A stretch of 64,000 nucleotides of DNA, from the NCBI GenBank assembly GCA_036172245.1, contig JAYWIR010000038.1, positions 1,860,001 to 1,924,000 of the forward strand, written 5' to 3'. Shown here one piece after another: positions 1 through 29,117 of this stretch (position 1 is the stretch's first letter; each line of letters opens with the position of its first letter). A program made the position numbers and the translations under genes. Source of the DNA: Raillietiella orientalis. Its lineage: Eukaryota. The notes beneath the pieces are model-generated. The model did not search any database. It was given only the letters and a program-made list of their open reading frames with translations, and was not told the origin of the DNA.

Positions 1-283
1 AGCTGAGGCAGTGGAAGGGAGTGGCATCAAATGGTGCAGCTGAGGGTGATTGTGTTTTCGTTTTTCTTGGTTTTTCTGTTTGACGGGCGTGTCCGTGAAG
101 GTAAGTAGAGGAAGTGTAGAAGGAGACGTGTTGTGTGAGCGTTGCTCGAATCGTTCAGTTGAAAGTGTGTGTATGTGTGCGCGAGCGTTGTGTGTTTTGT
201 TTGTGGTTTTCGTGATTTTTGGACCGCGCACTCCCATTATGTGAGGTGAGTGCAGCTTTTGATCGTGTGCGCGTGTGTTTCAG

Positions 284-729
284 GTGCCTGGTGAAGTTTA
301 TTTATCTTGGAGAATTGAGCCTACCACTGCACAGCTACCAGGACTTTATTGAGACTGCTCGCGACCTGCAGATCAAGGGAATCGTCGACAATCCGCTGAT
401 CTCGGATTTTGACCCGAGGCTGGGTCAGCATGTTAGGCATGTTTACTCATCTGAGGGAGTCAGCCTGCAGAAGGGTGTTGGAGTGGGAGCGAGTACAGGC
501 TACGAATCGGAAAGCTGTGAAAAGCTGGACGATTACTGGGAGTGCAGGGACAGCGATGACCTGCAGTGGGAGTCTGGAGTGTGCGGCTCAGATGTACAGG
601 ACGATTCATCGTTGGACAGCATTGGGAACGTGGTGTGCAGCCTGCTGGAGGAGCTGGTGATGCAAACGGAAGTGAACATTGCTGCAAATAGTTGTGAACC
701 TTTGTCTCCCAGCACCATGGACAGCGAAG
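284..729 (+). CDS. BTB-ZF gene copy 1, coding exon 2 (C-terminal half of BTB domain); first coding exon lies upstream of the window
   Basis: Acceptor gtgtttcag|G at 283/284, donor GAAG|gtgagt at 729/730. Encodes CLVKFIYLGELSLPLHSYQDFIETARDLQIKG, matching the end of a Tramtrack-type BTB. Identical to 22495-22940. Confidence 0.85.
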
Positions 730-875
730 GTGAGTTGGAGGTGGTTTGGACACCAGGGTGGAGAGTGGTGCATGAGTGGTTGTGAGTTTTTTCTTGTGAG
801 CATGCGGTTATGGTTTTGATGTGTGGATTTGCATATTTGGAATTGTGATTCCATGGTTGTGTTTGTGTGCACCAG

Positions 876-1419
876 AGCCGCTGAGGGGATCTCGAGGAAC
901 GCGGGATCACCCTGTGAGGACATGTTCCCGCTGTCATCGTGCATTTCACAGCCGAATGCTGTATCAGTTGCATTCGTGCAAAGGGACCCACTCCCGTGCT
1001 GGGAAGAAGGCAAGCAGCCGTGGGAGGATGCGTCCTTCATTTGGTGTGTGCGACGGGCAGGTGGAGCGTCATCCTCTGGTGAAAGTGCGGCGGCTAGATG
1101 ATAGCCAGCTGTGCAATTTGGAGGAGCGGACGACCTCTCCTGGATCAGAGGAAACGTTGGATAGAGATGAAGAGAGCAGCTTCTGCTGCTTGGAGTGCAG
1201 CGAGCAGTTCTGCTCGTTGGGTGCGCTGCAGCAGCACATGAGCATTCATGCAAGGGTTCACCGCTGCAGCATTTGCGGCTGGAGCTTTGAATCGGAAGAA
1301 GGAAGACTGTTGCACGAGAATGAGCACAATGCGTCGCCGTTGCTGTGCGAATTGTGCGGGAAGGGGATGAGAGCACGGGAAGCATACATGCTGCACTACC
1401 GCCTGCATTCTGTGGACAG
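876..1419 (+). CDS. BTB-ZF gene copy 1, coding exon 3 (C2H2 zinc fingers)
   Basis: Acceptor caccag|AG, donor GACAG|gtgagt. Contains three C2H2 fingers (CLECSEQF..HMSIH, CSICGWSF..HENEH, CELCGKGM..HYRLH) plus an atypical CSRC..HSC finger. Phase consistent with neighbours. Confidence 0.85.
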
Positions 1420-1469
1420 GTGAGTGTTGGGTTTGCAGACGTTTTGGGTGCATTTCAGTGGTTGTTCAG

Positions 1470-1797
1470 GGAAGAGAGCGCGTTTTCTCTTCCGTCGCTG
1501 CTTGCCCGAAACAGCAGTTTCGGTGGTGTTGGCAGCAGCAATTCTTCTCAGGTGGGCAAGTCTCACAGGTTGCTGATGTCTGCACGTGCGAGGCTGAAGC
1601 ACAAGAGGCGAGGGAGGCCGCCGAACGGTGCGCATCGCGTGTCGGTGGTGGAGGTGAAGAGCACGCCCGTGAAGAGAATGTCTCTGGACAAGAACCAAGT
1701 GCGTCGACTGAACGAGACGATGGAGGAAGTTCTGGAGGACATGTGCAGTTGGTTTGCTGAAGATGGTTTGGTTACCAGCGATGAGGAGTACTTGTGA
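1470..1797 (+). CDS. BTB-ZF gene copy 1, last coding exon (AT-hook-like KRRGRPP, acidic tail)
   Basis: Acceptor gttgttcag|G after a 50-nt intron restores frame REESAFSL...DEEYL*; stop TGA at 1795-1797. Confidence 0.7.
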
Positions 1798-1849
1798 TGG
1801 AGCTCCAGCAGCTGCCAGTTGGTCGCATGGCGCGGAGACTCTTTGGGGA

Positions 1850-3800
1850 GGAACGGACGTCGTTGTGCGTCGTTTTGGGTGAAGTCGCCGTTTCCTCGAG
1901 ATGGGAGGTGTGCTGGAAGAAATCCGGAACTTCCCCCTGGAGCCATGACGTGTTGCAGGGAGGGAGGGTGCGTCTGGAAAGCTGGGAAGCGATCTCGAAT
2001 ACAGACCTGAATTTGTTTGCCGTGTCTGCGTTTGTTTTCGGACGATGTGCTTGTTATGGGAATGAGGAGGAGAGCTGGAAGGTTTCGATGGTGGGGGGGG
2101 GGGTGAATGGAGGGGATTACGTAGGTGTGAGGGGTGGACAGGTTGGTGTTTGGTCTTCGTCACGGGCGACGTACGCTTGTTTGGCAGGGAGAGATGTTTA
2201 GGGAAGGCCTGGTGTTCCGGTGCTGGCCCGTGAGCGTCCGGTGTTGGTGGTGTGCCAGATGGAGTCTCACAGCTGGTGATAGGTGTCTGTGTTGGTTGTT
2301 TTCGGTGTTCATGCAGTGTGGAATGGTTTGAAAGTGTTTGGGAGGAGGAGACGAGAGGAGGGCAAGATGAGTTGCTTGTAGCAGCACCATGCGTGTGCTA
2401 GTGCTGCTGGTTTCTTGGTGTTTGGGATCGTTGGCTGGAGGGCAGAATGGTGCAGGTGCGTGGTTGCTTTCAGCGGAAGCAGTTGTGTCGGTGGTGGTTT
2501 GAGGACGTCGAGGTTGGGTGCTGCTGTTGTGGCTGATTCGTTCGGACGGAGGGTCGCGAGGACGAATTGGTGTGTGTGGAAGCACCCAGTGGTCAGGTGC
2601 CGCGAATGCATTCGTAATTCGTTGGGATGCGGAAGGTGCGGATGAGGTGGAGTTGGCAGAGATGGGACTGTTAGTGGCACTGCCGTGTTGTGGATAGGTG
2701 GATGAAGGGTGCGCATGTTGTTTTGTTTGCTTGCAGTGTTTCGGGGCTGGATGCAGGTGCATGGATGGGAGCGTTTTTCCTGTTTTCGGGAGGGTGGTGT
2801 ACGTGGAGGTGTACGCAGGGGTGGTGCACGTTTCGTGTGCGACGTGTCCGTCCCGCTTGGGAAGCGGGCTGTGTGGATTGCGTGTTGATGGAAATTCAGG
2901 TGGAAGGAATGGAGGGTGTTTCCGTTCGGGATGTTTTGTTTCGTTGGCGTGTGTGTTTGTGGAGCGTGCCAATATTCGGGAGGTTGGTGTGAAAGGGTGC
3001 AAGGGTTGAGAGGAACGGGAGAAGAATGGAAAGAAGAAGATGTGTGAGTGTGGTCTGCACGGGGTAGGACGCACTGTGTTGGACCCAGCGCGGAGGATGG
3101 GTGTAGGAATTGTGTTGGAATCGCTGGTGGATGAATGGGTTGCAGACAGCAGCACTCTTTGTGGAGGTCGTGCCGGAGTTTTTAGGGGAGGAAGGGGTGA
3201 ATTGGTTTGGCTGGTGTAGGTCTTGCGTGTGTGGGGTGCTGTGTGTTTGGGATGCTGAGGTTTGGTGTTGCATTTGGAAGCGGTGGCGGAGGTACGGCGG
3301 GCTTCGTGGCTGATGACTGTCGCGGGAAGGTTTCTCAGAGAAGGGTTGTCGGGCGACGGTGGCGCGGCGGTGGGATTGAGCGCGATGTGTTCGGATGGTG
3401 GGAAAAGCTGAATCTGTTGTATGGAGTTGTTGTTTCAGTTTCGGAATACGGTCCACGGGTGGAGTGGGTTCGTCTCGGGAGGAGGTTTGCTGGGGTACTC
3501 CTGAAAGGAGGCCTCGCTGGCGTGGAGGTTACACGATCGTGAGAGGATGATGTCTTGGGATGGCGTGTTGGATCCGTGCATGGAGAGGAGAGTTTGAAGG
3601 ATTTGTCGTCGTCGTCGCCGCGTTGGTCTCGCGCGTGGCTGCTGCTGCGTTTGCGTCTCGGGGCTGTCCCGGAAATGGTGTGTGGGTGGTTGGATGCTGT
3701 ATGTGCGGTGATTGCTAGGTAACGGGTTGATGGGAGGCTGGTTGTACTGTGTGCATGTAGGGGGGGAGAGAACCCTGGGAAAGCTGGTTGATTTGGGTGA
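1850..3800 (-). mobile_element. Heavily eroded non-LTR retrotransposon (RT + CCHC, probably NeSL/Utopia-like)
   Basis: Minus-strand motif ghosts in the expected order: PTPILRAGSN..CRPHSHIFF (~PIRAGVKQGCPLSPILF), RILARST (~ILAYADD), FPSTRNP (~FNPRKC), HFQTIPHC..QHRH (~ETLPHVLNHC..RHN). Very degenerate. Duplicated at ~24060-26010. Confidence 0.4.
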
Positions 3801-4299
3801 CTCATCGGGATACGTGGAAGTGGGTCGTCATCGGGTGCTATCGGTAGGTTCAGTTTTTTTTGCTTATCCTTTTTTAGGAGGGAAAAGATGTTCTGGCTCC
3901 CCTTGTACGTTTAGGGAAGTGTGTGTGGCTGTTGAGCGCGTGTGCTGGAAGGCGTGTTGCGGTGAAGGAATTCCGGTGTGGGCTGCATGCGGTAGTGAAG
4001 CAGTGGTGAAGGAGCTGAGAATGTTAAGGAGAATGTGGAAGGAATGGGTGGTGGTGCGTGATTGGCGCTGATGTTGCGTCGTCTTAGTTGTGGCTGTGAG
4101 TGTTTGGTGGTTGTGCATCTCCAGGTGTGTGCATGTTTTGCCCGTTGGTGCGTGCGTTTTGCGGTTGTTGAATGTTTGGCGTTGTCGAGAATGGTGTGTT
4201 TCGTGTTTGTGTGTCGTTGTGAGTGTCTGCGGGAGATGTTTGGGCTGGGAGCGGTGTATGGTTGCAGTGTGGGAGTTGTGTTCATCTTGGTGATAAGGT

Positions 4300-5320
4300 G
4301 TAGGAGTTGCACTGATGACGGAAGTACGTTGACGTTGGTTTCGCCACGGATGTCTTTGAGGGTGTTTTGGAGTTGCGACGGTCCTTTTGAGAGTGGCACT
4401 GATGGTGTTGCGGCTTGCTGGTGTGGGAGGAGACGGTGGTGGCTGTTCGAAAGTGGATTGTATTGGGGTGTGACGGCGGTGGTTGATTGTGCTGTGAGGA
4501 AAAGGTGTGTGTTGTTGGTCGGGATGTGGATGGATGGTGGTGAGTGTGGTACACGTGTGGTGGTACGTTACTGGATATGTTGGATTTGTGAGCGGGCACG
4601 GTCGCGCGGTGTTTGGACGAAAGGGAAGGATTGAGTGTTTGACAGGCGAATTGAATGGAGTGGTGGCGGCTGTGTACAAAGGCGTACGGTTCGTTTGTGC
4701 GTGTGGTTTTCTGTGTTTATCCTTGGCGTGGGGCTGGAAGAGGGTTTGCGTGTTGAGGAAACGTGTGTGGTTGTGCTGGTGAGCTTTGAGAGTGAGACGG
4801 TGGATGTGGTGAAATGGAGTAGTGAGAGCAGTTCGTTGGTGCCCTACCGCTTCAGAAGAGGGTGTGGGGTGCCCTGTGGATGGGTGCAACCCGAACGAGA
4901 GTAGAATTCGAGGATTCGTGTGAAGAAAAGAGTGTGATAAGCTGAAAAAGGTGATGCTGATCATGGTCCGTGAAAATGAAAAGTTGGGGATTATGTCCAT
5001 ATGAATCACCTGGAAATGTGCACGTGTTTACACTTGCAGTTCCATCGCAGTTGTTGCTGCATCGTTTGTTTTCGTTTTTGAGCATTTTTCAATTAGGCAG
5101 TGAATTTTTTATCCCAAGATTGAACCACAGTTTTCGTTTCAAGGTTACTGATCGTGATTGAGAGTACGTTCTTCAGATGGTTTGCTCCTGGAAATCGAAT
5201 AAGTTGTGGTCGGAAAAGAAGATTGCTGTTTTCAATTGTGTAGATATTTTCTCCAAACTCCGAAACTCCCTGTCGGTCTACTCTGGAACTTGAGCCGCCA
5301 AGAAAAAGTATCATGCATTG
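4300..5320 (+). mobile_element. Degenerate piggyBac transposase remnant
   Basis: Ordered motif ghosts: PRMSLRVF (~MSRNRF), VTGYV (~TGYV), RRTVR (~GTVR), KCARVYTCS, LLHRLFSFL (~WYHRLFF), LNHSFRFK, PVGL..KKYHA (~VGLC..CFKKYH). Many stops and frameshifts. A homologous stretch starts at ~26510. Confidence 0.5.
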
Positions 5321-14149: not shown

Positions 14150-14950
14150 TTGCGACCAAGTCCGCCCCTGATGATACCTGGATATGCAGGAGGTCATCTC
14201 TCCGGAGGGCGGGGATTTTCCCAGAGCTTAGCAGTCGACAGCGGGATGGTGAGATGGCGACCTCTCCTCCTTCTCACCCTGTTCCTGGAGGGAACTGAGG
14301 GATTCTCCGGAGCGCTTGGCTCGGTGAGACCCCCATCCGTTTTCGCAGCTGCTCTTCTCTCGCCCTGCTGCTGCTGCTGTGGACACACGAATCCTGCAAG
14401 CTCCCCCCTCCCCCAGCGCCGGCAGCTCGGACTGAAGAGGCTGGAGGCACGGGGGCTGGCCTTCCGAGGGAAGTCCTCGGCGTCGTAGCGATGGAGCAGC
14501 GAGATCATGGCATGGACCACCCGAGAAATCCCGTTTTCCCACCGATACTCCACAGGCATCGGAAGGAAGGCGCGCTCTCCCCGCTGCGACCTCTTGCACC
14601 GAGAGCGCTTTCCGAACGCACAGCCTCCATCGTCTGCACTCCGGCCCCGCCGGGGTTCGTGCCTAAGGGGAGACGCTTGCCTTGCGCTACCCTTGGAAAG
14701 TGGCTTCCTGGCTTCGCCCGCGTCGATCCCTGGTACTCCCGATTTCCAGAGTTGCCCCCCTCCCATCCCCTCGCTGCCCTCCCGGAAGCGCCTCTCTCCC
14801 CAGGCATGACGGACGAGTCGTTCGGTCGGATGAGGAAGGCAAAGGCGCACGCCGGCCAATGCGTCAGCCAGGAAGAGTTGAATGGCAGCTGTACGGCGCG
14901 TGCGGTTTCTTCCGAGGGAAATCAATTCCGTGGACGGAGGGAGAGTTCAG
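14150..14950 (-). mobile_element. Degenerate non-LTR reverse transcriptase fragment (L1/Tx1-like)
   Basis: Ghost SHFPRVAQGKRLPL (~F..RGVRQGCPL) with weak flanking RT motifs. Confidence 0.3.
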
Positions 14951-16084: not shown

Positions 16085-16675
16085 ACGAAGCTCTTTGACG
16101 CTGCCTACGCCACCCGAGGGGGGCGTGTAACTCTTCAAATTAGGGGGTGACCTCGGAGGGACCACCCTATGAATCCAGGAAGGTTTCGGAGAAAACCATA
16201 TCCTTATTCTCTTCAGAGGGACCCCGTAGAGGGGGTCACTCCATGATTTCTTCTCCGGAGGGACCCCTGGGAAGGATTTGATTCTTTTTTCCTTCCTCTG
16301 AAGAGAACTCCGAAAGGATGCTTCCCGATTTCTCTGAAGGGCGTTCCCCTAAGGGAACAGCGTGCTTCTCGATACTCTGGAGAGACGACCCCGAGAGAGG
16401 TATTAATGAGCTCCATGGAACGCGTTGGAGGGTCCCCCGCAGGGGGAGGAGGGTCCCATTTTCACAACAGGAGGCGAACCCCAAAGGTTCCTTGATTCCT
16501 GGAAGGATCCCAGGGTGTCGACTTCCAATCTCGGCCGGTCAGGGATATCCGGCTTCTTCCACCAGTGCCGCATTCGTAGGCACCAGTCCCGCAACCAGGC
16601 CATAGACCTGCGGGAAGAGAAGGACTCCAAACCCACGACGCACCCTCCATTTCTCGGCGTCGACCTTTCCCTCCC
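16085..16675 (-). mobile_element. SINE-like dispersed repeat, copy lacking most of the tRNA-like head
   Basis: Shares ccctatgaatccaggaagg, ctctgaagagaac and ttgattcctggaagga blocks with 55040-55730 and 61960-62790. Confidence 0.75.
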
Positions 16676-16779
16676 GCTGCTCTTTGTATGATCGGTTTTT
16701 TTTTTCAAGAAAAATTGCTGAGGACTGCAGGAACGTTTCATTTCTCCTCTTCAGTTCCACGACGCCGCCGTCCTGTTGC

Positions 16780-16995
16780 CCGCCCATTTCACCCTAGGGA
16801 AGGCATTCCTTCCTCTTCTTGACTGAGCGAAATCCTCGTTGTCATCGTCTTCCTGCTTTGCCGAACAGCTCTCCCCGGTGACTCGATGGATGTTCCGCAG
16901 GCTCGCTGCTCGTCTTCCATCGACTTCTGTGATTTTCATCTTCGTAGACGACTGGCACGCTGCTTCTCCTTCCAGAACTCCAACGGCCCAGAGCT
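16780..16995 (-). mobile_element. hAT C-terminal dimerisation-domain remnant
   Basis: GPLEFWKEK ... CGTSIES ... ELFGKAG (~DPLEFWK..PATS..SERLFSKAG). Confidence 0.5.
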
Positions 16996-17859
16996 GATCA
17001 AAAAAAACAATAACAAAACTAATGGATGCCAAGGAGCAGCAGACTCTCGGGGGGGAGGGCTATGGAAAGCTGTTTTCGTGTTTTTTTTAAAGTGCTTTCG
17101 GAGGAGCACTCTCTGGTCTCATGGGCTCATGGATTTTCTCTTTTTTCTTTTTTTGGATTCTCTTTTCGAGCCTGCATCCGTGCGCCACACGACAACGCGC
17201 CCTGCCGCCGGCGGACGTGAGCTGGTCAGCGTGGCGTTCTAAAGAGTGTGCACTTCTGCTACCATGGTTAGCTTCTGTCGACCACGGTTTTCTATCCGCT
17301 ATATAAATTCACCCATCTACTGTGTTACGAGGGTAAGCAACTCGAACTTTGTGTCAGAAAGAGCAAATTCGCCTGCCACCTGCGATTCGGTGCTGCCTAC
17401 GCGCGCGTGCGCGCACCATTCGAGAGAATTAGGAAATTTCCCCCGTGCTTCCAACATGATTTGCATGCCGCGATCCAAGGACAAAAATAATGGCAGTAAT
17501 TCAGAGACTCCCCAGCTTTGCAGCTATGGCGAACTTCCACCAGAAGTGCAAGCGTCACGGAGGCTGCGAGTATCAGAATGCCTCCTTCTCGAAGTCGCAA
17601 ACTCATCAACCCACTCACTCAATACGATTCTTGGTTTCTTTTGGTCTTCCGCGCAAATCTGATCTCTTCAACAAAAGATGCCATTTTGAAGTTGCAACGA
17701 ACATAAGGGAGGCAAAAGGAGGAACCAGGGCGCCGAAACAAATTACACCCTCAATTCAAGCAACCACCAGCAGCAGTAACTCCCCGAACTTTCAAAAAAT
17801 CCTGTACATTTCAAAAATCCTTCTTTTTTTTGTTTGAAAAATCTTCTCATCTTTCCCAT

Positions 17860-18500
17860 GCTTTTGGCTTCCTGAAAATCCCTACACCTACAAGTGGAAG
17901 ATCCTGTGTCTTACAGCGGAAGAAAGTTGCTCGAGGCATTGTCATCAAAACACGTGTACGGATCAAGGCAAACCTATGCCAACAAAAGAAGCAGAGAAGC
18001 AATAGCGAGCACAGCAAGGATCAAATCCTTCTACACAGGCAAACCCCCAAAAAAGAGAAGACAGCCATCGGAAGTAACTCCATAAGAAAATAAACCCAGC
18101 AACAGTATCAAAAAGAAATTCCATAAATACATGGCATATAAGCTAACAACGAAAGTTGGCAACCAGATGCTTTTCGACAGAGAAGGACATCCTACCAAAG
18201 AGTAGCACAAGAACAAGACAACCAAAACAAACCACCATACTGATGATAGTCAAGATGACTGGACTGCAAGATTACAAGAAGCTCTCAAAATGTAGTATCC
18301 ACCAAATTTTTGTCTCGCAGACAAAGCAGAATACAACAGTTCATCCACTAGTAACAGTCCCCGACATTTACTGTTTACCAAACTCCCAATAAGTTCATCG
18401 AAGGCAAGAATGAGACAATGATACAAGCTCAAAGAGTGACCATTATGAACTCGAAATGTCATCAGTTTCTCCTCAACTGCCAACAAATCAACAATTCATT
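17860..18500 (+). mobile_element. Degenerate piggyBac transposase remnant (A+C-skewed)
   Basis: Ordered ghosts: LPENPYTYKWKILCL (~MPNKP.KYGIKIF.L), KSFYTG (~DNFYTS), TAIGS..IRK (~VGT.RK), TILMIVKM, DYKKLSKCSIHQ (~DYNKTKGGVD.VDQ), TTVHPLV (~TRRWPLV). Confidence 0.5.
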
Positions 18501-21500
18501 AAACGAAAGATGGAACAACACATTCAAAAGTTCTACTAAAATTGCAATCAGCATAATCAGAAAGAAACCGCCTTCCTCTCTATTTTGTGGGAAACAGAAT
18601 GGGGGCAAAAATGGGACCTGACTAACAACTTTCCACTCCTCTAAACCACACCGTCCTCACCAAGCCAGAGGACTCGCTCACCCAACTCAAGCGCGTTCCG
18701 AGCTACCATCTTGATACTGGGATGCAGGTTGAGCACTGGACGGCTCCAAGAAGTCCTACTGCACAGAAGCGCCACCGTCGCGACCTGGAGACCAACGAGC
18801 ATCTCACATCGCGTAGGGAGAAGCACGCTGAGCAAGCGCACCGGTGCTCCAACCTTTCCCCTCGCCCCAAACACGCGCCTCGGAAAGCTCACGGTTGCCA
18901 CACAACCCACAAATTCGGGAATTTTCCACGCGCTTCGAACGACAAAGGCGACCCACGAAAAGCGGAGGCGGTGACCTCTCCCAAAGGACCACGGGCTGAC
19001 GTGCGTGGAAACAGAGAAAGTGAGACTCCCCAGGAAGCACAGATGACTAGCAGAGCACATGGCGAACAGAGTCCTTCTGAGCACGGCAACCGCACGTGCG
19101 CGCAGTCGGGAAGCCACCAAAATGGGGACAGGAATTTCAGCAATGTGCTCTGACTTCGTTCCCACGGAGGCAAGAAAGCAAGCAGGGGATGAAGAATTTT
19201 CACGCATATCTCCTGGTCGTCTTTGCTCGCAAGGAGTCGGACTGCATCCTGAACCAGGTTGCACTTTTCCGAAACACAGACCCCAAAGAATCGCACGTAC
19301 GACCATCCCACGCTCCCTCCCTAAACCATCACCATGCTAGCAACGCCGACACAACGTCGAGCGTAGAAATCGGGGTGTTTCCTGGTCGCGCTGCTGCGTC
19401 TTCCCTGGAGAACACGAAGCCGCTGACGGTTGTTTCCAGGCTCGCAACAGCAGCAAGCGTCCAGTAGGCCGATATCTTCCGGGATGATGATCAGCATGTA
19501 GAACGGCAAGACTTTTGGAAGACTTACTGAAAGCACCTTACGTTTCCGAACCGCTCCAGGAAGGGCGTACTCAGGAACAACATTCCGGAACCTGTTTCCA
19601 AACAAAACATGAAACATGTGCTTTGGTTTTCCAACGACAAACCGACGAAGAATGAATTCAGAGAACACGCTTCCTTGCTCACGAAACAAAAGAAGGGGGG
19701 GGGGGGAAGTCTCAAAAACCCTGGCTCCTTCTAGACGGGGGGATCGGAAACCCGCGAGGTTGCGCGGCGCAGCAGCGAATCTTCCGAGTTGCTTCGGGAG
19801 ATGCTGCGCGCTGCCTCCGCGATCGCGAAGAGAACACCCAACAGTTGTCATCCCCAACGCACGTGCACGTTGCGCGGCAATCGGGCGAATCGACACGCAG
19901 AGAGCGGACGGAAGATGGTCAGGGAGGAGCGGACGGGGCGCTGGAGCAGTCGACGAGAAGACCCCCCTTCGTAGGTCCCGTTGCCGCGCTGGCGCGGGCC
20001 TTTCCGACGGCAAGTGGTGGCCAGTGGCAGAGCGGAACGTCGAGAAGAGAGCGCGGAAGAGAGAGCGGTTGCGGCAGAAGGCATTGCTGGTGACCACGCC
20101 CAAATCATGGCATTCAGATGCGTTCTCGATTCTTCTCTTCATGCTGACGAAGACGCGCTTGGGATTTTCAGGCTGGAAAGCGTGGGGCCATCTGAGCTCT
20201 TCGAGTCGGCAGCGGCCGCGCGCAGGCACGGATGGAAGAGGGCATGGCGACTGGACGGGTGGCGGGATGCCGCTGGCCTGCTTCCCCGCTCCGGTCCAGG
20301 AGTGGCGTGCACCTGAGGATGCAGATGCCGAAGGCGCGATCGCCGGGCGGGAAAGCGCTCGCCGAGGACGCTGAGCGCTTTGCTAGGTTTGGCAGTTCCG
20401 CACCATGGCGACATCCAGGGTGATGCCGCGACAGGGGTGGGGAAGTTGTGATGGGAAGGGAGCAGCAGGGAGGGCCGAACGCGTACGCCGTCGTCCCCCA
20501 CGAAGCGATCGATGCGAAGCGCTGATCCGTGGTCCGCGGTTTCACGGCGGGGGTCGAAATCCGTGCGCGGAAGGATCGGAGGAGGAAAACGGAAAGGAAA
20601 CGCGAAAAAAAAAAAAAAAAAAAAAAAAAGAAGAGGAAGAGGAGGAGGCAAAAAAGGTCGCAATAAACGCAGGGAAAAAGTGTACGATTCGCACACGTCG
20701 CGGCGGCTCGGAGGGGTCGAAGGGAGCGATCGGTCGGTAAGGTCGGCGAATGACGGGGAGGATGCAGCGCAATTGTCGTGGTTTTCACAAGCGTGCACTT
20801 CGGCGAGGGTGATGGAATTCGTGTTTCCCCGTTTCCGGTTCCCCGTGCACGGGGACGTGTGTCTTCCTTCGAGTGCGCCGCGAAACGAGCCCGCTTTTGC
20901 CAAGGTTATTGCAAAAACACGCGCCTCCTTGCCGTGTGGCCTTTCGAGCCTACGAACGAAGAAGGCAGGAAGGAAGGAAGGAAGCAAAAGGGGGGGGGGG
21001 AACGGAACGAAGATCGGAAATTGGGGAGGCCCCTGCAATGTTTTCCGAAGCGTCCTGGGGGCGGGTCAGGAGCCCTCGACTTGTAGACTTTGCTCTTCGG
21101 GTTGGGAGGTTCCCCGTTTTGCAAGCTGCTTGTAGCAAAGAAGCAGAGGAAAGCTTGCTCTGCTTGGTTGTGCCGCTTCGAGTTGCAACCACAAGTGGTT
21201 TTTTTTTTTCTTTTTCCCCCTTTTTGTTTTTTTTTTGTTTTTGTTTTTTGTTGTCGTTGTATTGCTGTTGGTAGCTTTTGGTGGTGGAGGTTATGAGGCG
21301 TGGTACGAATGGGAAGGTAGCCGAATAGCAGGCATTTGGCCAGAGGTTATGTGTGTGGTTTCCCATGGGGTTAGCTGGCCGACTTGGGGTGGGCTTGTCT
21401 GCTGATTTTTTGTGGGTTGTGCATGTGAGGCCAACCCATGGTGGGCCATGGGCTGAGCAGTGATGCTTTCCTTCTGGAAGTGTCCATGCCACAGGAAGCA

Positions 21501-21571
21501 TGGGCCATGTTGCCAGTGTTGATTGTGCACAGTTTTGTTGTAGGATGCGATTCGTCAAGTAAAAAGTGAAG

Positions 21572-21816
21572 ATGAATTCAATGCAGTATTTTGACTGCCA
21601 CTTGTCCTGGGACAATTATCATGAGTTTCTGATTGCTGAATTATGTGAATGCCATGGTGAACAAAAATATGCAGACCTGTTCATCAGATGTGAAAATAAA
21701 AGCATTGGTTGCCACAAGTCAGTGATGGCAGCCTCCAGTGATTTGCTGAAAGGCTTGCTGAAAAATGAAAATTCAGATGTGCTTATCTTATCAGGATACA
21801 AATTTTCCACAATAAA
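21572..21816 (+). CDS. BTB-ZF gene copy 2, coding exon 1 (N-terminal BTB, Tramtrack type)
   Basis: MNSMQYFDCHLSWDNYHEFL..YADLFIRCENKSIGCHKSVMAASSDLLKGLL resembles F.LRWNN...DVTL.C....AHK.VL.A.S. Donor AA|gtgagt; upstream acceptor ttgttgtag at 21543. The four exons sum to 1563 nt = 520 aa + stop. Confidence 0.85.
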
Positions 21817-22494
21817 GTGAGTAGTTTTTGTTTTGCATTGCAAGGGAGTGCGTTGGTCCGCCATGTATGAATTTTTGCCATGGGTGGCAGTGAAGTGTTG
21901 CCCATTTGGTCAATTGATGATGAATAGTCATGAATGGAAGGAGGTGTTGATTTCGTTGCTTGCAAGAGGAAGTGTTTTTGCTCATTGAATTGCTGTGCAG
22001 ATCGCATTTTGCTGTTTGTTTGATTCGCGGCATGCACACGTTTGCGTCTGCATGCCACTTTTGCCATGATGGATTTTTTTCCCTGCCATGTGCGGCCCGT
22101 GCAGTGTTGTGTTGCCTATTTTTGTTGGCTGGAAGGTGGAACGGGGATTGTTGGAAGTCGTGGTCCAGTGTTTTCGGTACTGCAGAAGAAGGGAGTGAGT
22201 GTGCCAAATGGAGCTGAGGCAGTGGAAGGGAGTGGCATCAAATGGTGCAGCTGAGGGTGATTGTGTTTTCGTTTTTCTTGGTTTTTCTGTTTGACGGGCG
22301 TGTCCGTGAAGGTAAGTAGAGGAAGTGTAGAAGGAGACGTGTTGTGTGAGCGTTGCTCGAATCGTTCAGTTGAAAGTGTGTGTATGTGTGCGCGAGCGTT
22401 GTGTGTTTTGTTTGTGGTTTTCGTGATTTTTGGACCGCGCACTCCCATTATGTGAGGTGAGTGCAGCTTTTGATCGTGTGCGCGTGTGTTTCAG

Positions 22495-22940
22495 GTGCCT
22501 GGTGAAGTTTATTTATCTTGGAGAATTGAGCCTACCACTGCACAGCTACCAGGACTTTATTGAGACTGCTCGCGACCTGCAGATCAAGGGAATCGTCGAC
22601 AATCCGCTGATCTCGGATTTTGACCCGAGGCTGGGTCAGCATGTTAGGCATGTTTACTCATCTGAGGGAGTCAGCCTGCAGAAGGGTGTTGGAGTGGGAG
22701 CGAGTACAGGCTACGAATCGGAAAGCTGTGAAAAGCTGGACGATTACTGGGAGTGCAGGGACAGCGATGACCTGCAGTGGGAGTCTGGAGTGTGCGGCTC
22801 AGATGTACAGGACGATTCATCGTTGGACAGCATTGGGAACGTGGTGTGCAGCCTGCTGGAGGAGCTGGTGATGCAAACGGAAGTGAACATTGCTGCAAAT
22901 AGTTGTGAACCTTTGTCTCCCAGCACCATGGACAGCGAAG
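22495..22940 (+). CDS. BTB-ZF gene copy 2, coding exon 2
   Basis: tttcag|G completes a Lys codon, then CLVKFIYLGE..ARDLQIKG; donor gtgagt at 22941. Confidence 0.87.
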
Positions 22941-23086
22941 GTGAGTTGGAGGTGGTTTGGACACCAGGGTGGAGAGTGGTGCATGAGTGGTTGTGAGTTT
23001 TTTCTTGTGAGCATGCGGTTATGGTTTTGATGTGTGGATTTGCATATTTGGAATTGTGATTCCATGGTTGTGTTTGTGTGCACCAG

Positions 23087-23630
23087 AGCCGCTGAGGGGA
23101 TCTCGAGGAACGCGGGATCACCCTGTGAGGACATGTTCCCGCTGTCATCGTGCATTTCACAGCCGAATGCTGTATCAGTTGCATTCGTGCAAAGGGACCC
23201 ACTCCCGTGCTGGGAAGAAGGCAAGCAGCCGTGGGAGGATGCGTCCTTCATTTGGTGTGTGCGACGGGCAGGTGGAGCGTCATCCTCTGGTGAAAGTGCG
23301 GCGGCTAGATGATAGCCAGCTGTGCAATTTGGAGGAGCGGACGACCTCTCCTGGATCAGAGGAAACGTTGGATAGAGATGAAGAGAGCAGCTTCTGCTGC
23401 TTGGAGTGCAGCGAGCAGTTCTGCTCGTTGGGTGCGCTGCAGCAGCACATGAGCATTCATGCAAGGGTTCACCGCTGCAGCATTTGCGGCTGGAGCTTTG
23501 AATCGGAAGAAGGAAGACTGTTGCACGAGAATGAGCACAATGCGTCGCCGTTGCTGTGCGAATTGTGCGGGAAGGGGATGAGAGCACGGGAAGCATACAT
23601 GCTGCACTACCGCCTGCATTCTGTGGACAG
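23087..23630 (+). CDS. BTB-ZF gene copy 2, coding exon 3 (C2H2 zinc fingers)
   Basis: caccag|AG acceptor, three canonical C2H2 fingers, donor gtgagt at 23631. Confidence 0.87.
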
Positions 23631-23680
23631 GTGAGTGTTGGGTTTGCAGACGTTTTGGGTGCATTTCAGTGGTTGTTCAG

Positions 23681-24008
23681 AGAAGAGAGCGCGTTTTCTC
23701 TTCCGTCGCTGCTTGCCCGAAACAGCAGTTTCGGTGGTGTTGGCAGCAGCAATTCTTCTCAGGTGGGCAAGTCTCACAGGTTGCTGATGTCTGCACGTGC
23801 GAGGCTGAAGCACAAGAGGCGAGGGAGGCCGCCGAACGGTGCGCATCGCGTGTCGGTGGTGGAGGTGAAGAGCACGCCCGTGAAGAGAATGTCTCTGGAC
23901 AAGAACCAAGTGCGTCGACTGAACGAGACGATGGAGGAAGTTCTGGAGGACATGTGCAGTTGGTTTGCTGAAGATGGTTTGGTTACCAGCGATGAGGAGT
24001 ACTTGTGA
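23681..24008 (+). CDS. BTB-ZF gene copy 2, last coding exon (AT-hook-like motif)
   Basis: Acceptor gttgttcag|A, in frame to TGA at 24006-24008; contains KRRGRPP. Confidence 0.72.
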
Positions 24009-27000
24009 TGGAGCTCCAGCAGCTGCCAGTTGGTCGCATGGCGCGGAGACTCTTTGGGGAGGAACGGACGTCGTTGTGCGTCGTTTTGGGTGAAGTCGCC
24101 GTTTCCTCGAGATGGGAGGTGTGCTGGAAGAAATCCGGAACTTCCCCCTGGAGCCATGACGTGTTGCAGGGAGGGAGGGTGCGTCTGGAAAGCTGGGAAG
24201 CGATCTCGAATACAGACCTGAATTTGTTTGCCGTGTCTGCGTTTGTTTTCGGACGATGTGCTTGTTATGGGAATGAGGAGGAGAGCTGGAAGGTTTCGAT
24301 GGTGGGGGGGGGGGGTGAATGGAGGGGATTACGTAGGTGTGAGGGGTGGACAGGTTGGTGTTTGGTCTTCGTCACGGGCGACGTACGCTTGTTTGGCAGG
24401 GAGAGATGTTTAGGGAAGGCCTGGTGTTCCGGTGCTGGCCCGTGAGCGTCCGGTGTTGGTGGTGTGCCAGATGGAGTCTCACAGCTGGTGATAGGTGTCT
24501 GTGTTGGTTGTTTTCGGTGTTCATGCAGTGTGGAATGGTTTGAAAGTGTTTGGGAGGAGGAGACGAGAGGAGGGCAAGATGAGTTGCTTGTAGCAGCACC
24601 ATGCGTGTGCTAGTGCTGCTGGTTTCTTGGTGTTTGGGATCGTTGGCTGGAGGGCAGAATGGTGCAGGTGCGTGGTTGCTTTCAGCGGAAGCAGTTGTGT
24701 CGTTGGTGGTTTGAGGACGTCGAGGTTGGGTGCTGCTGTTGTGGCTGATTCGTTCGGACGGAGGGTCGCGAGGACGAATTGGTGTGTGTGGAAGCACCCA
24801 GTGGTCAGGTGCCGCGAATGCATTCGTAATTCGTTGGGATGCGGAAGGTGCGGATGAGGTGGAGTTGGCAGAGATGGGACTGTTAGTGGCACTGCCGTGT
24901 TGTGGATAGGTGGATGAAGGGTGCGCATGTTGTTTTGTTTGCTTGCAGTGTTTCGGGGCTGGATGCAGGTGCATGGATGGGAGCGTTTTTCCTGTTTTCG
25001 GGAGGGTGGTGTACGTGGAGGTGTACGCAGGGGTGGTGCACGTTTCGTGTGCGACGTGTCCGTCCCGCTTGGGAAGCGGGCTGTGTGGATTGCGTGTTGA
25101 TGGAAATTCAGGTGGAAGGAATGGAGGGTGTTTCCGTTCGGGATGTTTTGTTTCGTTGGCGTGTGTGTTTGTGGAGCGTGCCAATATTCGGGAGGTTGGT
25201 GTGAAAGGGTGCAAGGGTTGAGAGGAACGGGAGAAGAATGGAAAGAAGAAGATGTGTGAGTGTGGTCTGCACGGGGTAGGACGCACTGTGTTGGACCCAG
25301 CGCGGAGGATGGGTGTAGGAATTGTGTTGGAATCGCTGGTGGATGAATGGGTTGCAGACAGCAGCACTCTTTGTGGAGGTCGTGCCGGAGTTTTTAGGGG
25401 AGGAAGGGGTGAATTGGTTTGGCTGGTGTAGGTCTTGCGTGTGTGGGGTGCTGTGTGTTTGGGATGCTGAGGTTTGGTGTTGCATTTGGAAGCGGTGGCG
25501 GAGGTACGGCGGGCTTCGTGGCTGATGACTGTCGCGGGAAGGTTTCTCAGAGAAGGGTTGTCGGGCGACGGTGGCGCGGCGGTGGGATTGAGCGCGATGT
25601 GTTCGGATGGTGGGAAAAGCTGAATCTGTTGTATGGAGTTGTTGTTTCAGTTTCGGAATACGGTCCACGGGTGGAGTGGGTTCGTCTCGGGAGGAGGTGT
25701 GCTGGGGTACTCCTGAAAGGAGGCCTCGCTGGCGTGGAGGTTACACGATCGTGAGAGGATGATGTCTTGGGATGGCGTGTTGGATCCGTGCATGGAGAGG
25801 AGAGTTTGAAGGATTTGTCGTCGTCGTCGCCGCGTTGGTCTCGCGCGTGGCTGCTGCTGCGTTTGCGTCTCGGGGCTGTCCCGGAAATGGTGTGTGTGTG
25901 GTTGGATGCTGTATGTGCGGTGATTGCTAGGTAACGGGTTGATGGGAGGCTGGTTGTACTGTGTGCATGTAGGGGGGGAGAGAACCCTGGGAAAGCTGGT
26001 TGATTTGGGTGACTCATCGGGATACGTGGAAGTGGGTCGTCATCGGGTGCTATCGGTAGGTTCAGTTTTTTTTGCTTATCCTTTTTTAGGAGGGAAAAGA
26101 TGTTCTGGCTCCCCTTGTACGTTTAGGGAAGTGTGTGTGGCTGTTGAGCGCGTGTGCTGGAAGGCGTGTTGCGGTGAAGGAATTCCGGTGTGGGCTGCAT
26201 GCGGTAGTGAAGCAGTGGTGAAGGAGCTGAGAATGTTAAGGAGAATGTGGAAGGAATGGGTGGTGGTGCGTGATTGGCGCTGATGTTGCGTCGTCTTAGT
26301 TGTGGCTGTGAGTGTTTGGTGGTTGTGCATCTCCAGGTGTGTGCATGTTTTGCCCGTTGGTGCGTGCGTTTTGCGGTTGTTGAATGTTTGGCGTTGTCGA
26401 GAATGGTGTGTTTCGTGTTTGTGTGTCGTTGTGAGTGTCTGCGGGAGATGTTTGGGCTGGGAGCGGTGTATGGTTGCAGTGTGGGAGTTGTGTTCATCTT
26501 GGTGATAAGGTGTAGGAGTTGCACTGATGACGGAAGTACGTTGACGTTGGTTTCGCCACGGATGTCTTTGAGGGTGTTTTGGAGTTGCGACGGTCCTTTT
26601 GAGAGTGGCACTGATGGTGTTGCGGCTTGCTGGTGTGGGAGGAGACGGTGGTGGCTGTTCGAAAGTGGATTGTATTGGGGTGTGACGGCGGTGGTTGATT
26701 GTGCTGTGAGGAAAAGGTGTGTGTTGTTGGTCGGGATGTGGATGGATGGTGGTGAGTGTGGTACACGTGTGGTGGTACGTTACTGGATATGTTGGATTTG
26801 TGAGCGGGCACGGTCGCGCGGTGTTTGGACGAAAGGGAAGGATTGAGTGTTTGACAGGCGAATTGAATGGAGTGGTGGCGGCTGTGTACAAAGGCGTACG
26901 GTTCGTTTGTGCGTGTGGTTTTCTGTGTTTATCCTTGGCGTGGGGCTGGAAGAGGGTTTGCGTGTTGAGGAAACGTGTGTGGTTGTGCTGGTGAGCTTTG

Positions 27001-28532
27001 AGAGTGAGACGGTGGATGTGGTGAAATGGAGTAGTGAGAGCAGTTCGTTGGTGCCCTACCGCTTCAGAAGAGGCTGTGGGGTGCCCTGTGGATGGGCGCA
27101 TCCCAATGTAGAATTCGGGGCCTCGTGGGAGAAGGGTGAAGTTCAATGATGTGAAATGTATGACAGTAACGTAACGTCCGAAGTTTCGATATATTATATT
27201 TGTGAAGGCTTGACAGGTTATTTGATGCAGTGACGTCACCGTATGTTGAGGAATGCGTCTTGTCCGATTAGTGAGTTTTTGAGGGTAGACGTGAGAGTTT
27301 TTTTTATGGTCGTGATATTTAGAGTTAGGTTGAAGGTTTGGGACTGCTGATACCTTCTATGTTTGTGGGATTTGAATTTTCAATAAGTGTGATGATGTGT
27401 GTTGTGTCTTGTGTTGAAGGAAGTTTCGCGGTGGCTTGTAAGAATTGGAAAGCAAGGAATGACCCGAAGGCATGTGTAAGATTGTGAGGCCATGGATGGT
27501 TTTGGAACTGTGTTTGGGTGGGTAAATTTCTCTTCGAAATCATGTGAATGAAATTATGGCGTGTGTTTTGAATTACCAATGGCAATGCTGATGTGTGCGA
27601 AGGGTATGTTGAGAAACCTTAACCCTGGTGTGTGTTTTTGGGATTGAAAATGAAGTGTTGTGAAGCGTTTGCTTTTCAGAAATGTCCCTGCCCCTTGAGG
27701 AAAATCGAGTTTTTCATTCAGTCAGTTCTGTAATTTAGTAGTTTATTATTCTCAACTGTCTGATTTTTTAAGGTCATAACGGTCGACTCTTCAAGATTCT
27801 AAAATACTGTATCATCTAACTGCTTCAGTGAGACTGACCAATGCTCCAGTGCTTTTCTTGAGTGATTGTCGCCATTACACATAATATAATTATTCTCTGC
27901 ATGTGAAATCTAAAGTTGCATCAGAGTTTTATATGATAACTGATTCGAGAAGGAAAATTTTGACTTATGTTTTAGAATACAACAGCCATGCGATTGTTTT
28001 GGGAACTCACATTTAGTCTTGGTTGGGGCTACAGTACATTTTTATAATGACACTACATTGATATCATGATTGTGTTACATCATCAGGCACAGAGATCCGA
28101 AAGAAGTTGGACATGGAAAACTGGACGTGCTAAATTGGGGGTTCTGTTTTTTGCATTTAATTAAAACTCACTAGATGAATATTTATTTACTGTTCATTAT
28201 TTCAAGAGGGACTTTAATATTTTTTTTTTCTTGCTGTGACTCTATTCAATTACCCTTTTTGTGTATCCTTAAATCTTTTGAAGTTGCTGGCGTTATCATT
28301 AATCATTTGATGCAACAAGATTTGTAACTACATAAATAATAACTCATCACCTCTGTCCACTTACAATAAAGTAGATAAAAAATGGTCACCCAATGCAAAA
28401 AATTGGTTGCAGATTTTTCGTTTCATCCATGCATAGGACATGGATTCTTATTTATCGGTTTCGTCTGGAAAACAAAAACAGAAAGGGATACGTTTCCCTC
28501 TTCGTGATACTTCCTTGAATTTTCAGACTTTC

Positions 28533-28731
28533 TCAAGTTCCATCGAAACATGCAATAGAACTGCATTTGGAGGAGGATGGAAGTAAAGACTCCGGGATAT
28601 CGACCTCCAGGATGTGCCATCTGCTAACGGGTTTCCTTGGAGACTTCAGCATATCCTTCCAGTGATCTCTTCCGGATCCACAGATATTTGAACCAATCAG
28701 TAAAAAGCCAACGTCACATTTGTTCCCATGT
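28533..28731 (-). CDS. Synaptotagmin-like gene, last exon (end of C2B)
   Basis: HGNKCDVGFLLIGSNICGSGRDHWKDMLKSPRKPVSRWHIL...DGT*: the canonical synaptotagmin HW..ML..PR.P...WH.L tail. Acceptor cttaag|A. Confidence 0.9.
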
Positions 28732-28774
28732 CTTAAGCACACTATGCGATCGTCCACCCGATTTGGTGTTTTAC

Positions 28775-28949
28775 CTGTTGCGTCCGCAGATCCTGACGAT
28801 GAGACTAACTTCGTGCATTTGATATGAAGAGACATCGAACGCCATATTATGATCAAAGACATTGTTCATGGAGTTCTTCCTTGTCACTGTCTTCTTCTTC
28901 TTCTTGACACACTTACGACCATTCATCAAGGATACCTTGATGCAAGGAT
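28775..28949 (-). CDS. Synaptotagmin-like gene, C2B exon (polybasic patch)
   Basis: DPCIKVSLMNGRKCVKKKKKTVTRKNSMNNVFDHNMAFDV; acceptor ttccttag, donor gtaaaa. Confidence 0.9.
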
Positions 28950-29002
28950 CTAAGGAAGAAAGACCCTGCCCAGTTCTGCGGGAGCCACCGTGCGACACGT
29001 AC

Positions 29003-29117
29003 CGTTCACTCCTGCTCGTTCCAGCCCGCGCACTTTCAGTAGGGTTAAGGTGATCCTACCGGCGGTAGGCAAATAGCAAAGAGAGCACAGCAACTGTATT
29101 TTCTCGTCATTTCCTAC
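29003..29117 (-). CDS. Synaptotagmin-like gene, start of C2B
   Basis: VGNDEKIQLLCSLCYLPTAGRITLTLLKVRGL (~SLCYLPTAGRLTV..KARNL); acceptor gttcaag, donor gtacgt. Confidence 0.9.

Follow-up and report, generated by a model that had tools for sequence, protein, structure and literature searches.

Genes and other features of the locus

The + strand of the window (the whole stretch of 64,000 nt that was analysed) carries a four-exon BTB/C2H2 gene (BTB-ZF) with GT..AG introns and an uninterrupted product of 520 aa (Table 1). Since a BTB domain and C2H2 fingers are combined in one spliced ORF, the product is assigned to the BTB-C2H2 zinc-finger transcription factors. At the place of the N-terminal FxLRWN motif of arthropod TTK-type BTB domains (PMC11426971) it displays C-H-L-S-W-D with matching L and W (two of the five fixed residues), and the top Atlas cluster for the product is commonest in Arthropoda, a weak indication. 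The minus strand harbours the 3' part of a convergent, synaptotagmin-like gene (stop codon at 28533-28535). ORF 28536-28865 has its match at the very C-terminus of proteins of 434-481 aa, three of the four checked containing two C2 stretches and one a single stretch; one C2 exon of the convergent gene was found, and its first C2 domain was not located within the window.

The 3672 bp following the BTB-ZF stop codon are presumed to represent a 3' UTR or read-through zone. Searches of this post-stop block for 3-base periodicity, Pfam domains and AATAAA/ATTAAA motifs on either strand yielded none, and apart from one 16-bp unit x2.5, neither tandem repeats nor an autocorrelation peak were seen. On the + strand, a canonical poly(A) signal is first encountered at 28160, ~480 bp past the end of the skew. 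Upstream of the gene, the A25 run and T-runs noted in the original prediction are present, as is the CpG-rich core (10.0 CpG per 100 bp compared to 6.5 in the background), which is presumed to act as bidirectional promoter. In the adjacent left arm, no gene or Pfam domain was found. A minus-strand ATG followed by GTAAG-type donors is possible at ~19525-19615.

Two piggyBac-like remnants and a minus-strand retroelement, from which imposition of the skew after insertion had been suggested, were not recovered: neither a piggyBac or other transposase domain nor a reverse-transcriptase domain was contained in stop-to-stop ORFs of at least 38 aa across 16939-28324 at the applied Pfam cut-off (E<=0.01-0.05), at which heavily decayed remnants could escape detection. 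Likewise, the interspersed repeats of the window have no copies inside either arm, and a search of the window in a purine/pyrimidine alphabet revealed no transition-hypermutated relative of either arm above shuffled controls. With no TE domains recovered, no basis was found for the argument that the skew was imposed on TEs after their insertion. The suggested piRNA-cluster-like transcription is likewise not upheld, since a dual-strand piRNA cluster is defined by dense nested TE fragments along with small RNAs from both strands, and neither TE domains nor repeat copies were found in the arms.

Table 1 Features of the locus (positions in the window)
Feature	Position	Strand	Basis and remarks
Second copy of BTB-ZF exons 2-4 and most of the G+T-rich post-stop block	1..4892	+	Self-blastn
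Left arm; + strand rich in A+C, minus strand with G+T.60	17450..19400	-	Composition; no gene recognised
CpG-rich core, polarity flip	19400..21130	.	GC.59; CpG density
A25 homopolymer run	20605..20629	+	Tandem Repeats Finder and sequence
T-rich run	21199..21263 (about)	+	Read from sequence; opens strongly G+T-rich arm
BTB-ZF coding exon 1	21572..21816	+	ATG 21572; first half of BTB domain (Pfam BTB, E 4.5e-06); GTGAGT donor at 21817
BTB-ZF coding exon 2	22495..22940	+	Gene model
BTB-ZF coding exon 3, C2H2 zinc fingers	23087..23630	+	Pfam zf-C2H2_4, E 1.2e-06; gene model
BTB-ZF coding exon 4	23681..24008	+	Gene model; TGA stop 24006-24008
Post-stop block rich in G+T (presumably 3' UTR or read-through zone)	24009..27680	+	Composition; non-coding, non-repetitive
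AATAAA, likely poly(A) signal of convergent C2-domain gene	27742..27747	-	Motif scan; skew edge
Last coding exons of synaptotagmin-like gene (second C2 domain and C-terminus)	28533..29055	-	Pfam C2, E 6.7e-06 for 28774-29055; unskewed

Strand composition

Compared to the background (94 windows of 500 bp; G+T mean.503, sd.029, maximum.574), the + strand of the right arm (21130-27680) has a mean G+T content of.66 (z 5.4), reaching.71 (z 7.1) in the right-arm core at 24200-27100, while the left arm has a mean of only.39 (z -3.9). Both arms agree with the original prediction, the base counts of which are exact (A+C 48/60 at 18181-18240, G+T 49/60 at 4201-4260). Base fractions are G.41, T.29, A.16 and C.14 at 24000-27104 and A.33, C.28, G.20 and T.20 at 17450-19400. 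No skew is apparent at 28-64 kb, and the stretch at 5.6-17 kb is likewise flat. The flip is staggered, with the cumulative G-C minimum at 19682, the cumulative T-A minimum at 21020 and a step in G+T from.57 to.76 at 21201. Strong skew begins at the T-run, ~370 bp upstream of the BTB-ZF ATG, and fades at ~27680-27800, adjoining the minus-strand AATAAA at 27742 and, as predicted, ahead of the convergent stop codon (~0.85 kb short of it).

Within the BTB-ZF unit, the G+T content amounts to.67 in the 5' leader, to.68,.75 and.78 in introns 1-3 (GC skew.40-.61) and to.70 in the post-stop block (G.40, T.30, A.17, C.13; GC skew.50, T-A skew.28), and the 211 fourfold sites have a GC skew of.56 (G.44, C.12), compared to G+T contents of.54 and.51 and GC skews of.19 and.23 at codon positions 1 and 2. 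Exactly in the coding exons, the skew is reduced, returning in introns of 50-146 bp. A mutational origin is indicated by the location of the skew at weakly constrained sites: it is present in introns, in the 5' leader, at fourfold sites and in the DNA past the stop codon but not at codon positions 1 and 2. BTB-ZF is the only skewed one of the two genes recognised in the window; as the C2-domain gene and the region at 28-64 kb are free of skew, genes here do not all share this property.

Transitions cannot alter purine content, yet the purine fraction rises from.494 to.568 in the skewed DNA. Deamination (C>T and A>G), the proposed source of the keto excess, is therefore insufficient alone. About.075 of composition is shifted net from C to G, about half of the lost C returns as G rather than T, and transversion asymmetry or selection for G is needed in addition. 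If transitions only were to account for the equilibrium, the product of the ratios A>G/T>C and C>T/G>A would need to be ~5.3. The skewed DNA shows no depletion of CpG (o/e 1.05 versus.89 in the background).

U1-like 5' splice-site words occur 24 times on the + strand of the right arm (8 times in the post-stop block) and never on the minus strand of either, and three times on the minus and never on the plus strand of the left arm, where AATAAA/ATTAAA is found twice on plus and not on minus. Thus, the directional signals agree on both arms, which is in part a consequence of composition. The post-stop block contains 20-33 G3+ runs per kb on the + strand versus 2-4 C3+ runs, which should favour R-loops for + strand transcription only; the combination of positive GC skew and G clusters on the non-template strand marks the block as R-loop-prone by sequence.

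Duplicated block at the window start

The G+T-rich DNA at 1-~5600 is genuinely skewed, as originally noted, but does not represent an independent block: 1-4892 is a direct copy of 22212-27104 with 99.84 % identity (99.837 % over 4893 columns, self-blastn) and is simply a recent or gene-converted copy carrying its own composition. This copy is already under way at the window start, its left end being located beyond the window, and the spacing of the two copies is 22.2 kb. They differ at 8 positions, 3 of them within the last 31 bp; the 7 substitutions (2 transitions and 5 transversions), though unpolarised and too few for a test, are not deamination-like. Homology falls to 89 % over 4801-4923 and then ends. 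The sharpest drop in skew of the first copy, at ~4790, is close to this duplication boundary, past which the skew is only.55-.57. The stop of the skew at the boundary shows that it is a property of the sequence and travels with it. At the second copy (22212-27104), the skew runs ~600 bp past the copy boundary.

Origin of the asymmetry

The right arm is, with somewhat better than even confidence, attributed to an unusually strong transcription-associated asymmetry of the non-template strand of the BTB-ZF unit. The G+T excess resides on the coding strand of the gene and is strongest at weakly constrained sites (introns and fourfold sites as opposed to codon positions 1 and 2). The arm at ~21130-27680 would then correspond to the transcription unit of the BTB/C2H2 gene, with transcript ends and transcription in the germ line being assumed, and its sense strand would have drifted to ~70 % G+T at every weakly constrained site. 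Excess of G over C on the sense strand would result in G-rich nascent RNA, stable R-loops and longer exposure; R-loops, as predicted from the sequence, probably helped to build the asymmetry. In closely spaced genes, R-loops and termination are linked to GC skew at the gene ends, both 5' and 3' (PMC3787257). At the same time, G/T richness would remove A-rich poly(A) signals and multiply U1-type 5' splice-site words, favouring long transcripts, such that the skewed state could feed back on and strengthen itself. The weaker, opposite skew at 17450-19400 may reflect an upstream-antisense or divergent transcript of the shared CpG-rich promoter core. The polarity is thus compatible with divergent transcription from the core, one of the initially proposed readings, whereas the fixed origin proposed alongside fits poorly with short, unequal arms and abrupt ends. 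Arguing against the attribution to transcription are the amplitude, the purine excess, the position of the + strand poly(A) signal at 28160 beyond the skew, the left arm devoid of a recognised gene or domain, and the substitutions between the copies, which do not resemble deamination.

Alternatively, the skew could be a selected feature, the G-rich, C-poor non-template strand being kept as an R-loop termination or insulation zone that separates two convergent genes or as a GU-rich regulatory 3' UTR. The skew is strongest and longest in the 3.7 kb that lie between the stop codon and the convergent gene's 3' end, this block lacks poly(A) signals on both strands, and the purine excess is not obtainable by deamination; moreover, human genes whose ends are GC-skewed lie close to one another and have R-loops at the 3' end (PMC3787257). 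However, a terminator or UTR role leaves the like composition of three introns, 5' leader and fourfold sites unexplained, the block displays no repeated motif, periodicity or structure signal, and the first copy contains it without a convergent neighbour, rendering selection unlikely as the main cause. The polarity (A+C left, G+T right on the + strand) would also be accounted for if the CpG-rich core held a strong, fixed replication origin that is bidirectional and enriches the leading strand in G+T on both sides, and CpG islands with flanking bidirectional asymmetry have been proposed as origins (PMC2817419). Such an origin is nevertheless quite improbable: instead of a long-range two-sided asymmetry independent of gene boundaries, the arms, 2 and 6.5 kb long, are unequally strong and break off sharply at gene boundaries (5.6-17 and 28-64 kb being flat), the skew follows the exon-intron structure as well as the duplication boundary of the first copy, and the origin-type asymmetries published in PMC2817419 are weak (A>G/T>C 1.1) and reach up to 1 Mb.

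The presence of gene and block in two nearly identical copies and the movement of the skew with the copy could also indicate a mobile or amplified cassette, copied by a rolling-circle or strand-displacement mechanism or hypermutated by a deaminase. This is considered very improbable, as no transposase, Rep/helicase or reverse-transcriptase domain is encoded in ORFs of at least 38 aa at 16939-28324, self-blastn did not report terminal repeats around the copy, hypermutated relatives of the arms are missing from the window (see above), and the skew of the second copy exceeds the copy boundary. Furthermore, the block is low-copy (depth ~2 in an independent DNA run, against a maximum of 46 at the known interspersed repeat of 16.1-16.4 kb). 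An assembly or sequencing artefact, conceivable for a near-identical 4.9-kb duplicate at the window edge, is extremely improbable, since four 151-bp contigs of the independent run match without differences (20371-20521, 23415-23565, 27526-27676 and 27728-27878), the gene model is unbroken and uses canonical splice sites, and the copies differ at 8 positions.

Comparison with known systems

A strand asymmetry associated with transcription was reportedly described for animal genes by Green et al. in 2003. A G+T excess carried by the non-template strand in animal genes is also covered in the pertinent sections of a review (PMC10030826) and of Polak & Arndt 2009 (PMC2817419), the latter giving human A>G/T>C ratios of 1.6 in introns and 1.1 in intergenic DNA, with the direction set by transcription. 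The BTB-ZF unit shares with this asymmetry the sense-strand excess of G over C and T over A, a direction following gene orientation, and a roughly even course in introns along the unit that weakens under selective constraint. It differs by its amplitude (GC skew.50 and T-A skew.28 over 6.5 kb; the product of ~5.3 compares with 1.6 for one ratio only in human introns), by the added purine excess and by its confinement to a single gene of the two recognised in the window.

Comparable one-strand enrichment of G and T is known from animal mitochondrial DNA (heavy strand) and, as a further case, from G-rich immunoglobulin switch regions; in either, it is ascribed to R-loops or to a prolonged single-stranded state. 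Unlike mitochondrial DNA, the BTB-ZF gene is nuclear and intron-containing, with no sign of strand-displacement replication, and unlike switch regions, the skewed block has no tandem repeats. In amplitude, the locus resembles both.

A feedback model for divergent transcription was reportedly put forward by Wu & Sharp (2013). As in the U1-PAS axis, to the extent that it is outlined in PMC6172195, the sense direction is rich in U1 words and devoid of poly(A) signals, the opposite direction being reversed, and this holds for both arms; here, however, the U1-word enrichment is largely a by-product of the extreme composition.

As at the GC-skewed, R-loop-forming human gene ends in the relevant part of Ginno et al. 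2013 (PMC3787257), CpG is undepleted, but here the skew spans the whole unit plus 3.7 kb post-stop rather than kb-scale terminal peaks, T>A skew accompanies GC skew, and R-loops are predicted. The flip from A+C on the left to G+T on the right of the CpG-rich core resembles the skew jumps at CpG islands and origins in PMC2817419, which in the portion concerned are weak, up to 1 Mb long and intergenic, as opposed to strong, 2 to 6.5 kb long and gene-bounded here. The designation as an undescribed system is too strong, since non-template G+T excess and bidirectional asymmetry at CpG islands are described for humans in the cited parts of PMC10030826 and PMC2817419; the kind of asymmetry appears already described, and the novelty would lie in the amplitude, which is far above the described cases. 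The GC skew of Drosophila R-loop genes is negative in sign (PMC9254486), and the sign of the present skew would be atypical if the host is an arthropod.

Strand composition and site classes

The background for composition comprised 94 500-bp windows drawn from 5.6-17 kb and from 28-63.5 kb (G+T mean.503, sd.029, maximum.574). Relative to this background, + strand G+T is raised in the right arm at ~21130-27680, which holds the BTB-ZF gene (mean.66, z 5.4), with a most strongly skewed part at 24200-27100 (mean.71, z 7.1), and is lowered in the A+C-rich left arm at 17450-19400 (mean.39, z -3.9). The + strand base frequencies are G.41, T.29, A.16 and C.14 at 24000-27104, and A.33, C.28, G.20 and T.20 in the left arm. 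The original prediction had quoted + strand spot counts of 48/60 A+C (18181-18240) and 49/60 G+T (4201-4260), both of which proved exact on recount, and had described an A-run, a T-run and a CpG-rich core between the arms, all of which are present in the sequence. It had also proposed a cumulative skew plot; computed within the window, this reveals a staggered flip of polarity, with turning points at 19682 for G-C and at 21020 for T-A. The core between the two turning points contains 10.0 CpG per 100 bp versus 6.5 in the background.

Positions of features in and around the skewed region (window-relative)
Feature	Position	Strand	Remark
A25 run	20605-20629		in the CpG-rich core
T-rich run	21199-21263		read from the sequence
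BTB-ZF coding exons	21572-21816, 22495-22940, 23087-23630, 23681-24008	+	GT..AG introns
TGA stop codon of BTB-ZF gene	24006-24008	+
AATAAA	27742	-	0.8 kb past the stop codon of the convergent gene (28533-28535)
Interspersed repeat copies	16107-16438, 41391-41528, 49603-50257, 55020-55436, 62165-62351	both	both orientations

The exons of the BTB-ZF gene predict a 520-aa product that combines a BTB domain with C2H2 fingers. Most informative is the breakdown of its sites by class: the skew is weaker where the protein sequence constrains the DNA, with introns as short as 50-146 bp lying between the coding exons, and is therefore a property of all weakly constrained sites within a single transcription unit.

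Skew of the BTB-ZF transcription unit by site class
Site class	G+T	GC skew	T-A skew
5' leader	.67	.33
Intron 1	.68	.40
Intron 2	.75	.61
Intron 3	.78	.58
Fourfold sites (n=211; G.44, C.12)	.68	.56
Codon position 1	.54	.19
Codon position 2	.51	.23
3672 bp after the stop codon	.70	.50	.28

Strong skew sets in at the T-rich run, ~370 bp 5' of the BTB-ZF ATG, and ends at ~27680-27800, adjoining the minus-strand AATAAA. The convergent gene beyond, read from the minus strand, is devoid of a sense-strand G+T excess, as is the remaining 36 kb. Its last exons code for a C2 domain (157 representative matches to the last C2 exon, best 5.4e-07), and its C-terminus aligns with the ends of proteins of 434-481 aa, of which four were checked, three having two C2 stretches and one a single stretch. 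Its earlier designation as a synaptotagmin gene is reasonable. The N-terminus of the BTB domain matches only two of the five residues that are fixed in the TTK motif of arthropods; neither the BTB exon-2 ORF nor a C2 ORF had a protein word-index match at E<=0.001. Two loci at 27 % identity, retrieved with the zinc-finger exon in a metagenome scan, are multi-finger genes devoid of BTB and were rejected as orthologues; the modest skews that they show were disregarded as having no bearing on the present gene.

An A-rich run (20606-20655) and a T-rich run (21200-21249), 74 % complementary over 50 nt, bracket the last 544 bp of the CpG-rich core. These runs may mark a nucleosome-free promoter or could pair within a transcript. 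If GTAAGG at ~20737 served as donor and TAG at ~21543 as acceptor, the T-run would fall inside a putative 5' UTR intron.

Duplicated block and transposon content

Self-comparison revealed that 1-4892 (copy 1) corresponds to 22212-27104 (copy 2) in direct orientation with 99.84 % identity, the copies lying 22.2 kb apart. The duplication comprises at least exons 2-4 of the BTB-ZF gene and 3.1 kb of downstream DNA, since the window opens within copy 1. Between the copies there are seven substitutions and a single-base indel, with three of the eight differences falling within the last 31 bp; the substitutions (two transitions plus five transversions, of which three are G/T) are too few to test, and coding sequence is affected only once, by a synonymous change in the first base of exon 4. 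Homology declines to 89 % over 4801-4923 and then ends; the decay of identity in the final 60 bp resembles the edge of a gene conversion or of a duplication. The steepest drop in G+T of copy 1, at ~4790, lies near this boundary, and the DNA beyond has a G+T content of only.55-.57; at copy 2 the skew extends ~600 bp past the boundary (G+T.65 at 27105-27680). The skew thus moved together with the duplicated sequence. The original prediction had counted 1-~5600 as a second skewed block of a regional process, but it provides no independent evidence for such a process because 1-4892 is a copy of 22212-27104. The copy boundary was also considered as a Helitron-type 3' terminus, which was rejected, as there is a small hairpin in copy 2 only and no CTRR end.

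The other argument for a regional process had been that the skew was imposed on transposable elements after their insertion. Among all stop-to-stop ORFs of at least 38 aa in 16939-28324 (including 90 of 38-69 aa), matches above Pfam cut-offs were confined to BTB, C2H2 zinc finger and C2; domains of piggyBac, other transposases or reverse transcriptases were absent from these ORFs, a scan which heavily decayed remnants could escape. The argument therefore lacks support. Across the whole window, 430 of 526 stop-to-stop ORFs of at least 70 aa were scanned, the remainder consisting of 35 in 1-3866, where the sequence duplicates DNA already scanned, 5 in 42495-43051 and 56 between 43006 and 64000, most of them shorter ones; in 4961-16997, the scan also took in 105 of the 106 ORFs with a length of 40-69 aa. 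The sole transposon-like match among the scanned ORFs, a weak one to Transposase_1 (57834-58127, E.004), is located far outside the skewed span. When the rest of the window was searched in a purine/pyrimidine alphabet, in which transitions are invisible, no transition-hypermutated relatives of the two arms scored above shuffled sequence (top scores 93 and 83 versus shuffled maxima of 106 and 85). Whether or not skewed genes prove common genome-wide, there is far less reason than the original prediction suggested to posit a localised, undescribed system that exposes ssDNA and is anchored at this locus.

The Transposase_1 (mariner-type) match is enclosed by 171-bp inverted repeats (93 % identity) around ~460 bp at 57659-58463, an arrangement that probably represents a MITE or a decayed element of the Tc1/mariner type. 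In addition, the window contains a short interspersed repeat family (75-87 % identity), of which self-comparison of the window found no copy within either arm.

Post-stop block

The 3672 bp following the stop codon (24009-27680) are non-coding and non-repetitive, lacking 3-base periodicity, Pfam matches and hidden tandem or long-period repeats. An Rfam search gave 0 matches at gathering score. Two minus-strand ORFs of 424 and 426 aa were discounted as genes: the three frames are all open, adjoining long overlapping ORFs (290, 218 and 210 aa) in other minus frames, and periodicity and Pfam matches are lacking. Such stop depletion results from the composition and the genome-wide shortage of TA, the o/e of which is.42 in block and background alike. 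Predicted folding of the + sense RNA is slightly weaker than that of GC-matched background (-53.5 vs -61.2 kcal per 200 nt), a difference that is not decisive. On the + strand, G3+ runs number 20-33 per kb versus 2-4 C3+ runs. U1-type words in the right arm occur 24 times on + and 0 times on -, and AATAAA/ATTAAA are absent from both strands of the block, the first on the + strand being at 28160.

An assembly or sequencing artefact is excluded by the sparse 151-bp contigs of an independent DNA run, which are identical to 23415-23565 and 27526-27676 at a depth of ~2. The block is real sequence; it is also not high-copy, the repeat at 16.1-16.4 kb reaching a contig depth of up to 46 in this run versus ~2 for unique DNA.

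Origin of the skew

On balance, we lean towards transcription-associated strand asymmetry, the predictions of which agree with the pattern, in an unusually strong case. Human introns have an A>G/T>C ratio of 1.6, versus 1.1 in intergenic DNA (PMC2817419), with a direction following that of transcription and a nearly constant value along introns. The present locus is the same in kind as such known non-template-strand asymmetry and additionally displays GC-skew features of the R-loop type, but differs by its amplitude (in the block about three times that of the strongest described transcription-associated asymmetry), by the extension of the skew over the whole unit including silent sites, by an added purine component, and by its restriction to one of the two recognisable genes of the window.

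The original prediction attributed the keto excess to deamination, which falls short as the full cause. With C/T of.44 and G/A of 2.33 in the block versus 1.17 and 1.18 in the background, a transitions-only equilibrium would require a product of the two complementary-rate ratios of ~5.3, well above the human figures. Moreover, the purine fraction rises from.494 to.568, corresponding to a net shift of ~.075 of the composition from C to G. Because transitions leave the purine content unchanged, transversion asymmetry or selection for non-template G must contribute; the block composition thus includes a C-to-G-type component beyond deamination.

Selection for a terminator or a GU-rich UTR would account for the position of the block and for its purine excess, but leaves unexplained why introns, leader and silent sites have this same composition, and is considered unlikely. 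A fixed bidirectional replication origin would share the polarity, yet long gradients independent of genes would then be expected, whereas the observed arms of 2 and 6.5 kb end at gene boundaries, rendering this explanation very improbable. Less probable still is a mobile or rolling-circle cassette, which would fit the duplication but should be multi-copy and carry element hallmarks, neither of which applies here.

With regard to transcription-associated asymmetry, a feedback is plausible in which skew would promote R-loops and reduce poly(A) signals, thereby prolonging exposure and increasing the skew further. The U1/PAS part of this idea reportedly originates from Wu and Sharp in 2013. One may speculate, although this is rather unlikely, that the locus represents a gene-bounded, self-reinforcing state of strand-specific hypermutation in an animal germ line. 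If so, it would represent a category of "hyper-skewed" genes that is new for animals; a literature search listed no comparable extreme gene-wide skews in invertebrates, which is weak evidence of absence. Should the amplitude be mutational, the locus would be a natural extreme for separating deamination, transversion bias, R-loops and repair in germ-line transcription-associated mutagenesis, and would permit testing the mutual feedback of skew and R-loop formation. Should many such genes exist genome-wide, the skew would rather be a compositional property of the genome, of mainly descriptive value.

Left arm and background composition

The left arm is more weakly skewed (G+T.60 read on the minus strand), and neither it nor any other part of the sequence between the two copies matched a Pfam domain. 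It contains three U1-type words on the minus and none on the plus strand; its canonical poly(A) signals, two in number, both belong to the plus strand. At ~19525-19615 the minus strand may be read as a putative ATG with donors of the GTAAG type behind it. The two ends of the left arm carry a 29-bp imperfect direct repeat (17427-17455 and 18912-18940, 23/29 identical) holding a GGAAATTTCC-like palindromic core, which could be due to chance.

At 12000-14000, a GC-rich stretch devoid of a recognisable domain, the + strand has an excess of A over T, with (A-T)/(A+T) of up to +.29, and no GC skew. In the background at 30000-64000 (GC 54 %), TpA is strongly depleted (o/e.42), CpG is near expectation (.89), and GA/TC and AA/TT are in excess (~1.3), a dinucleotide signature that is unusual among animal genomes.
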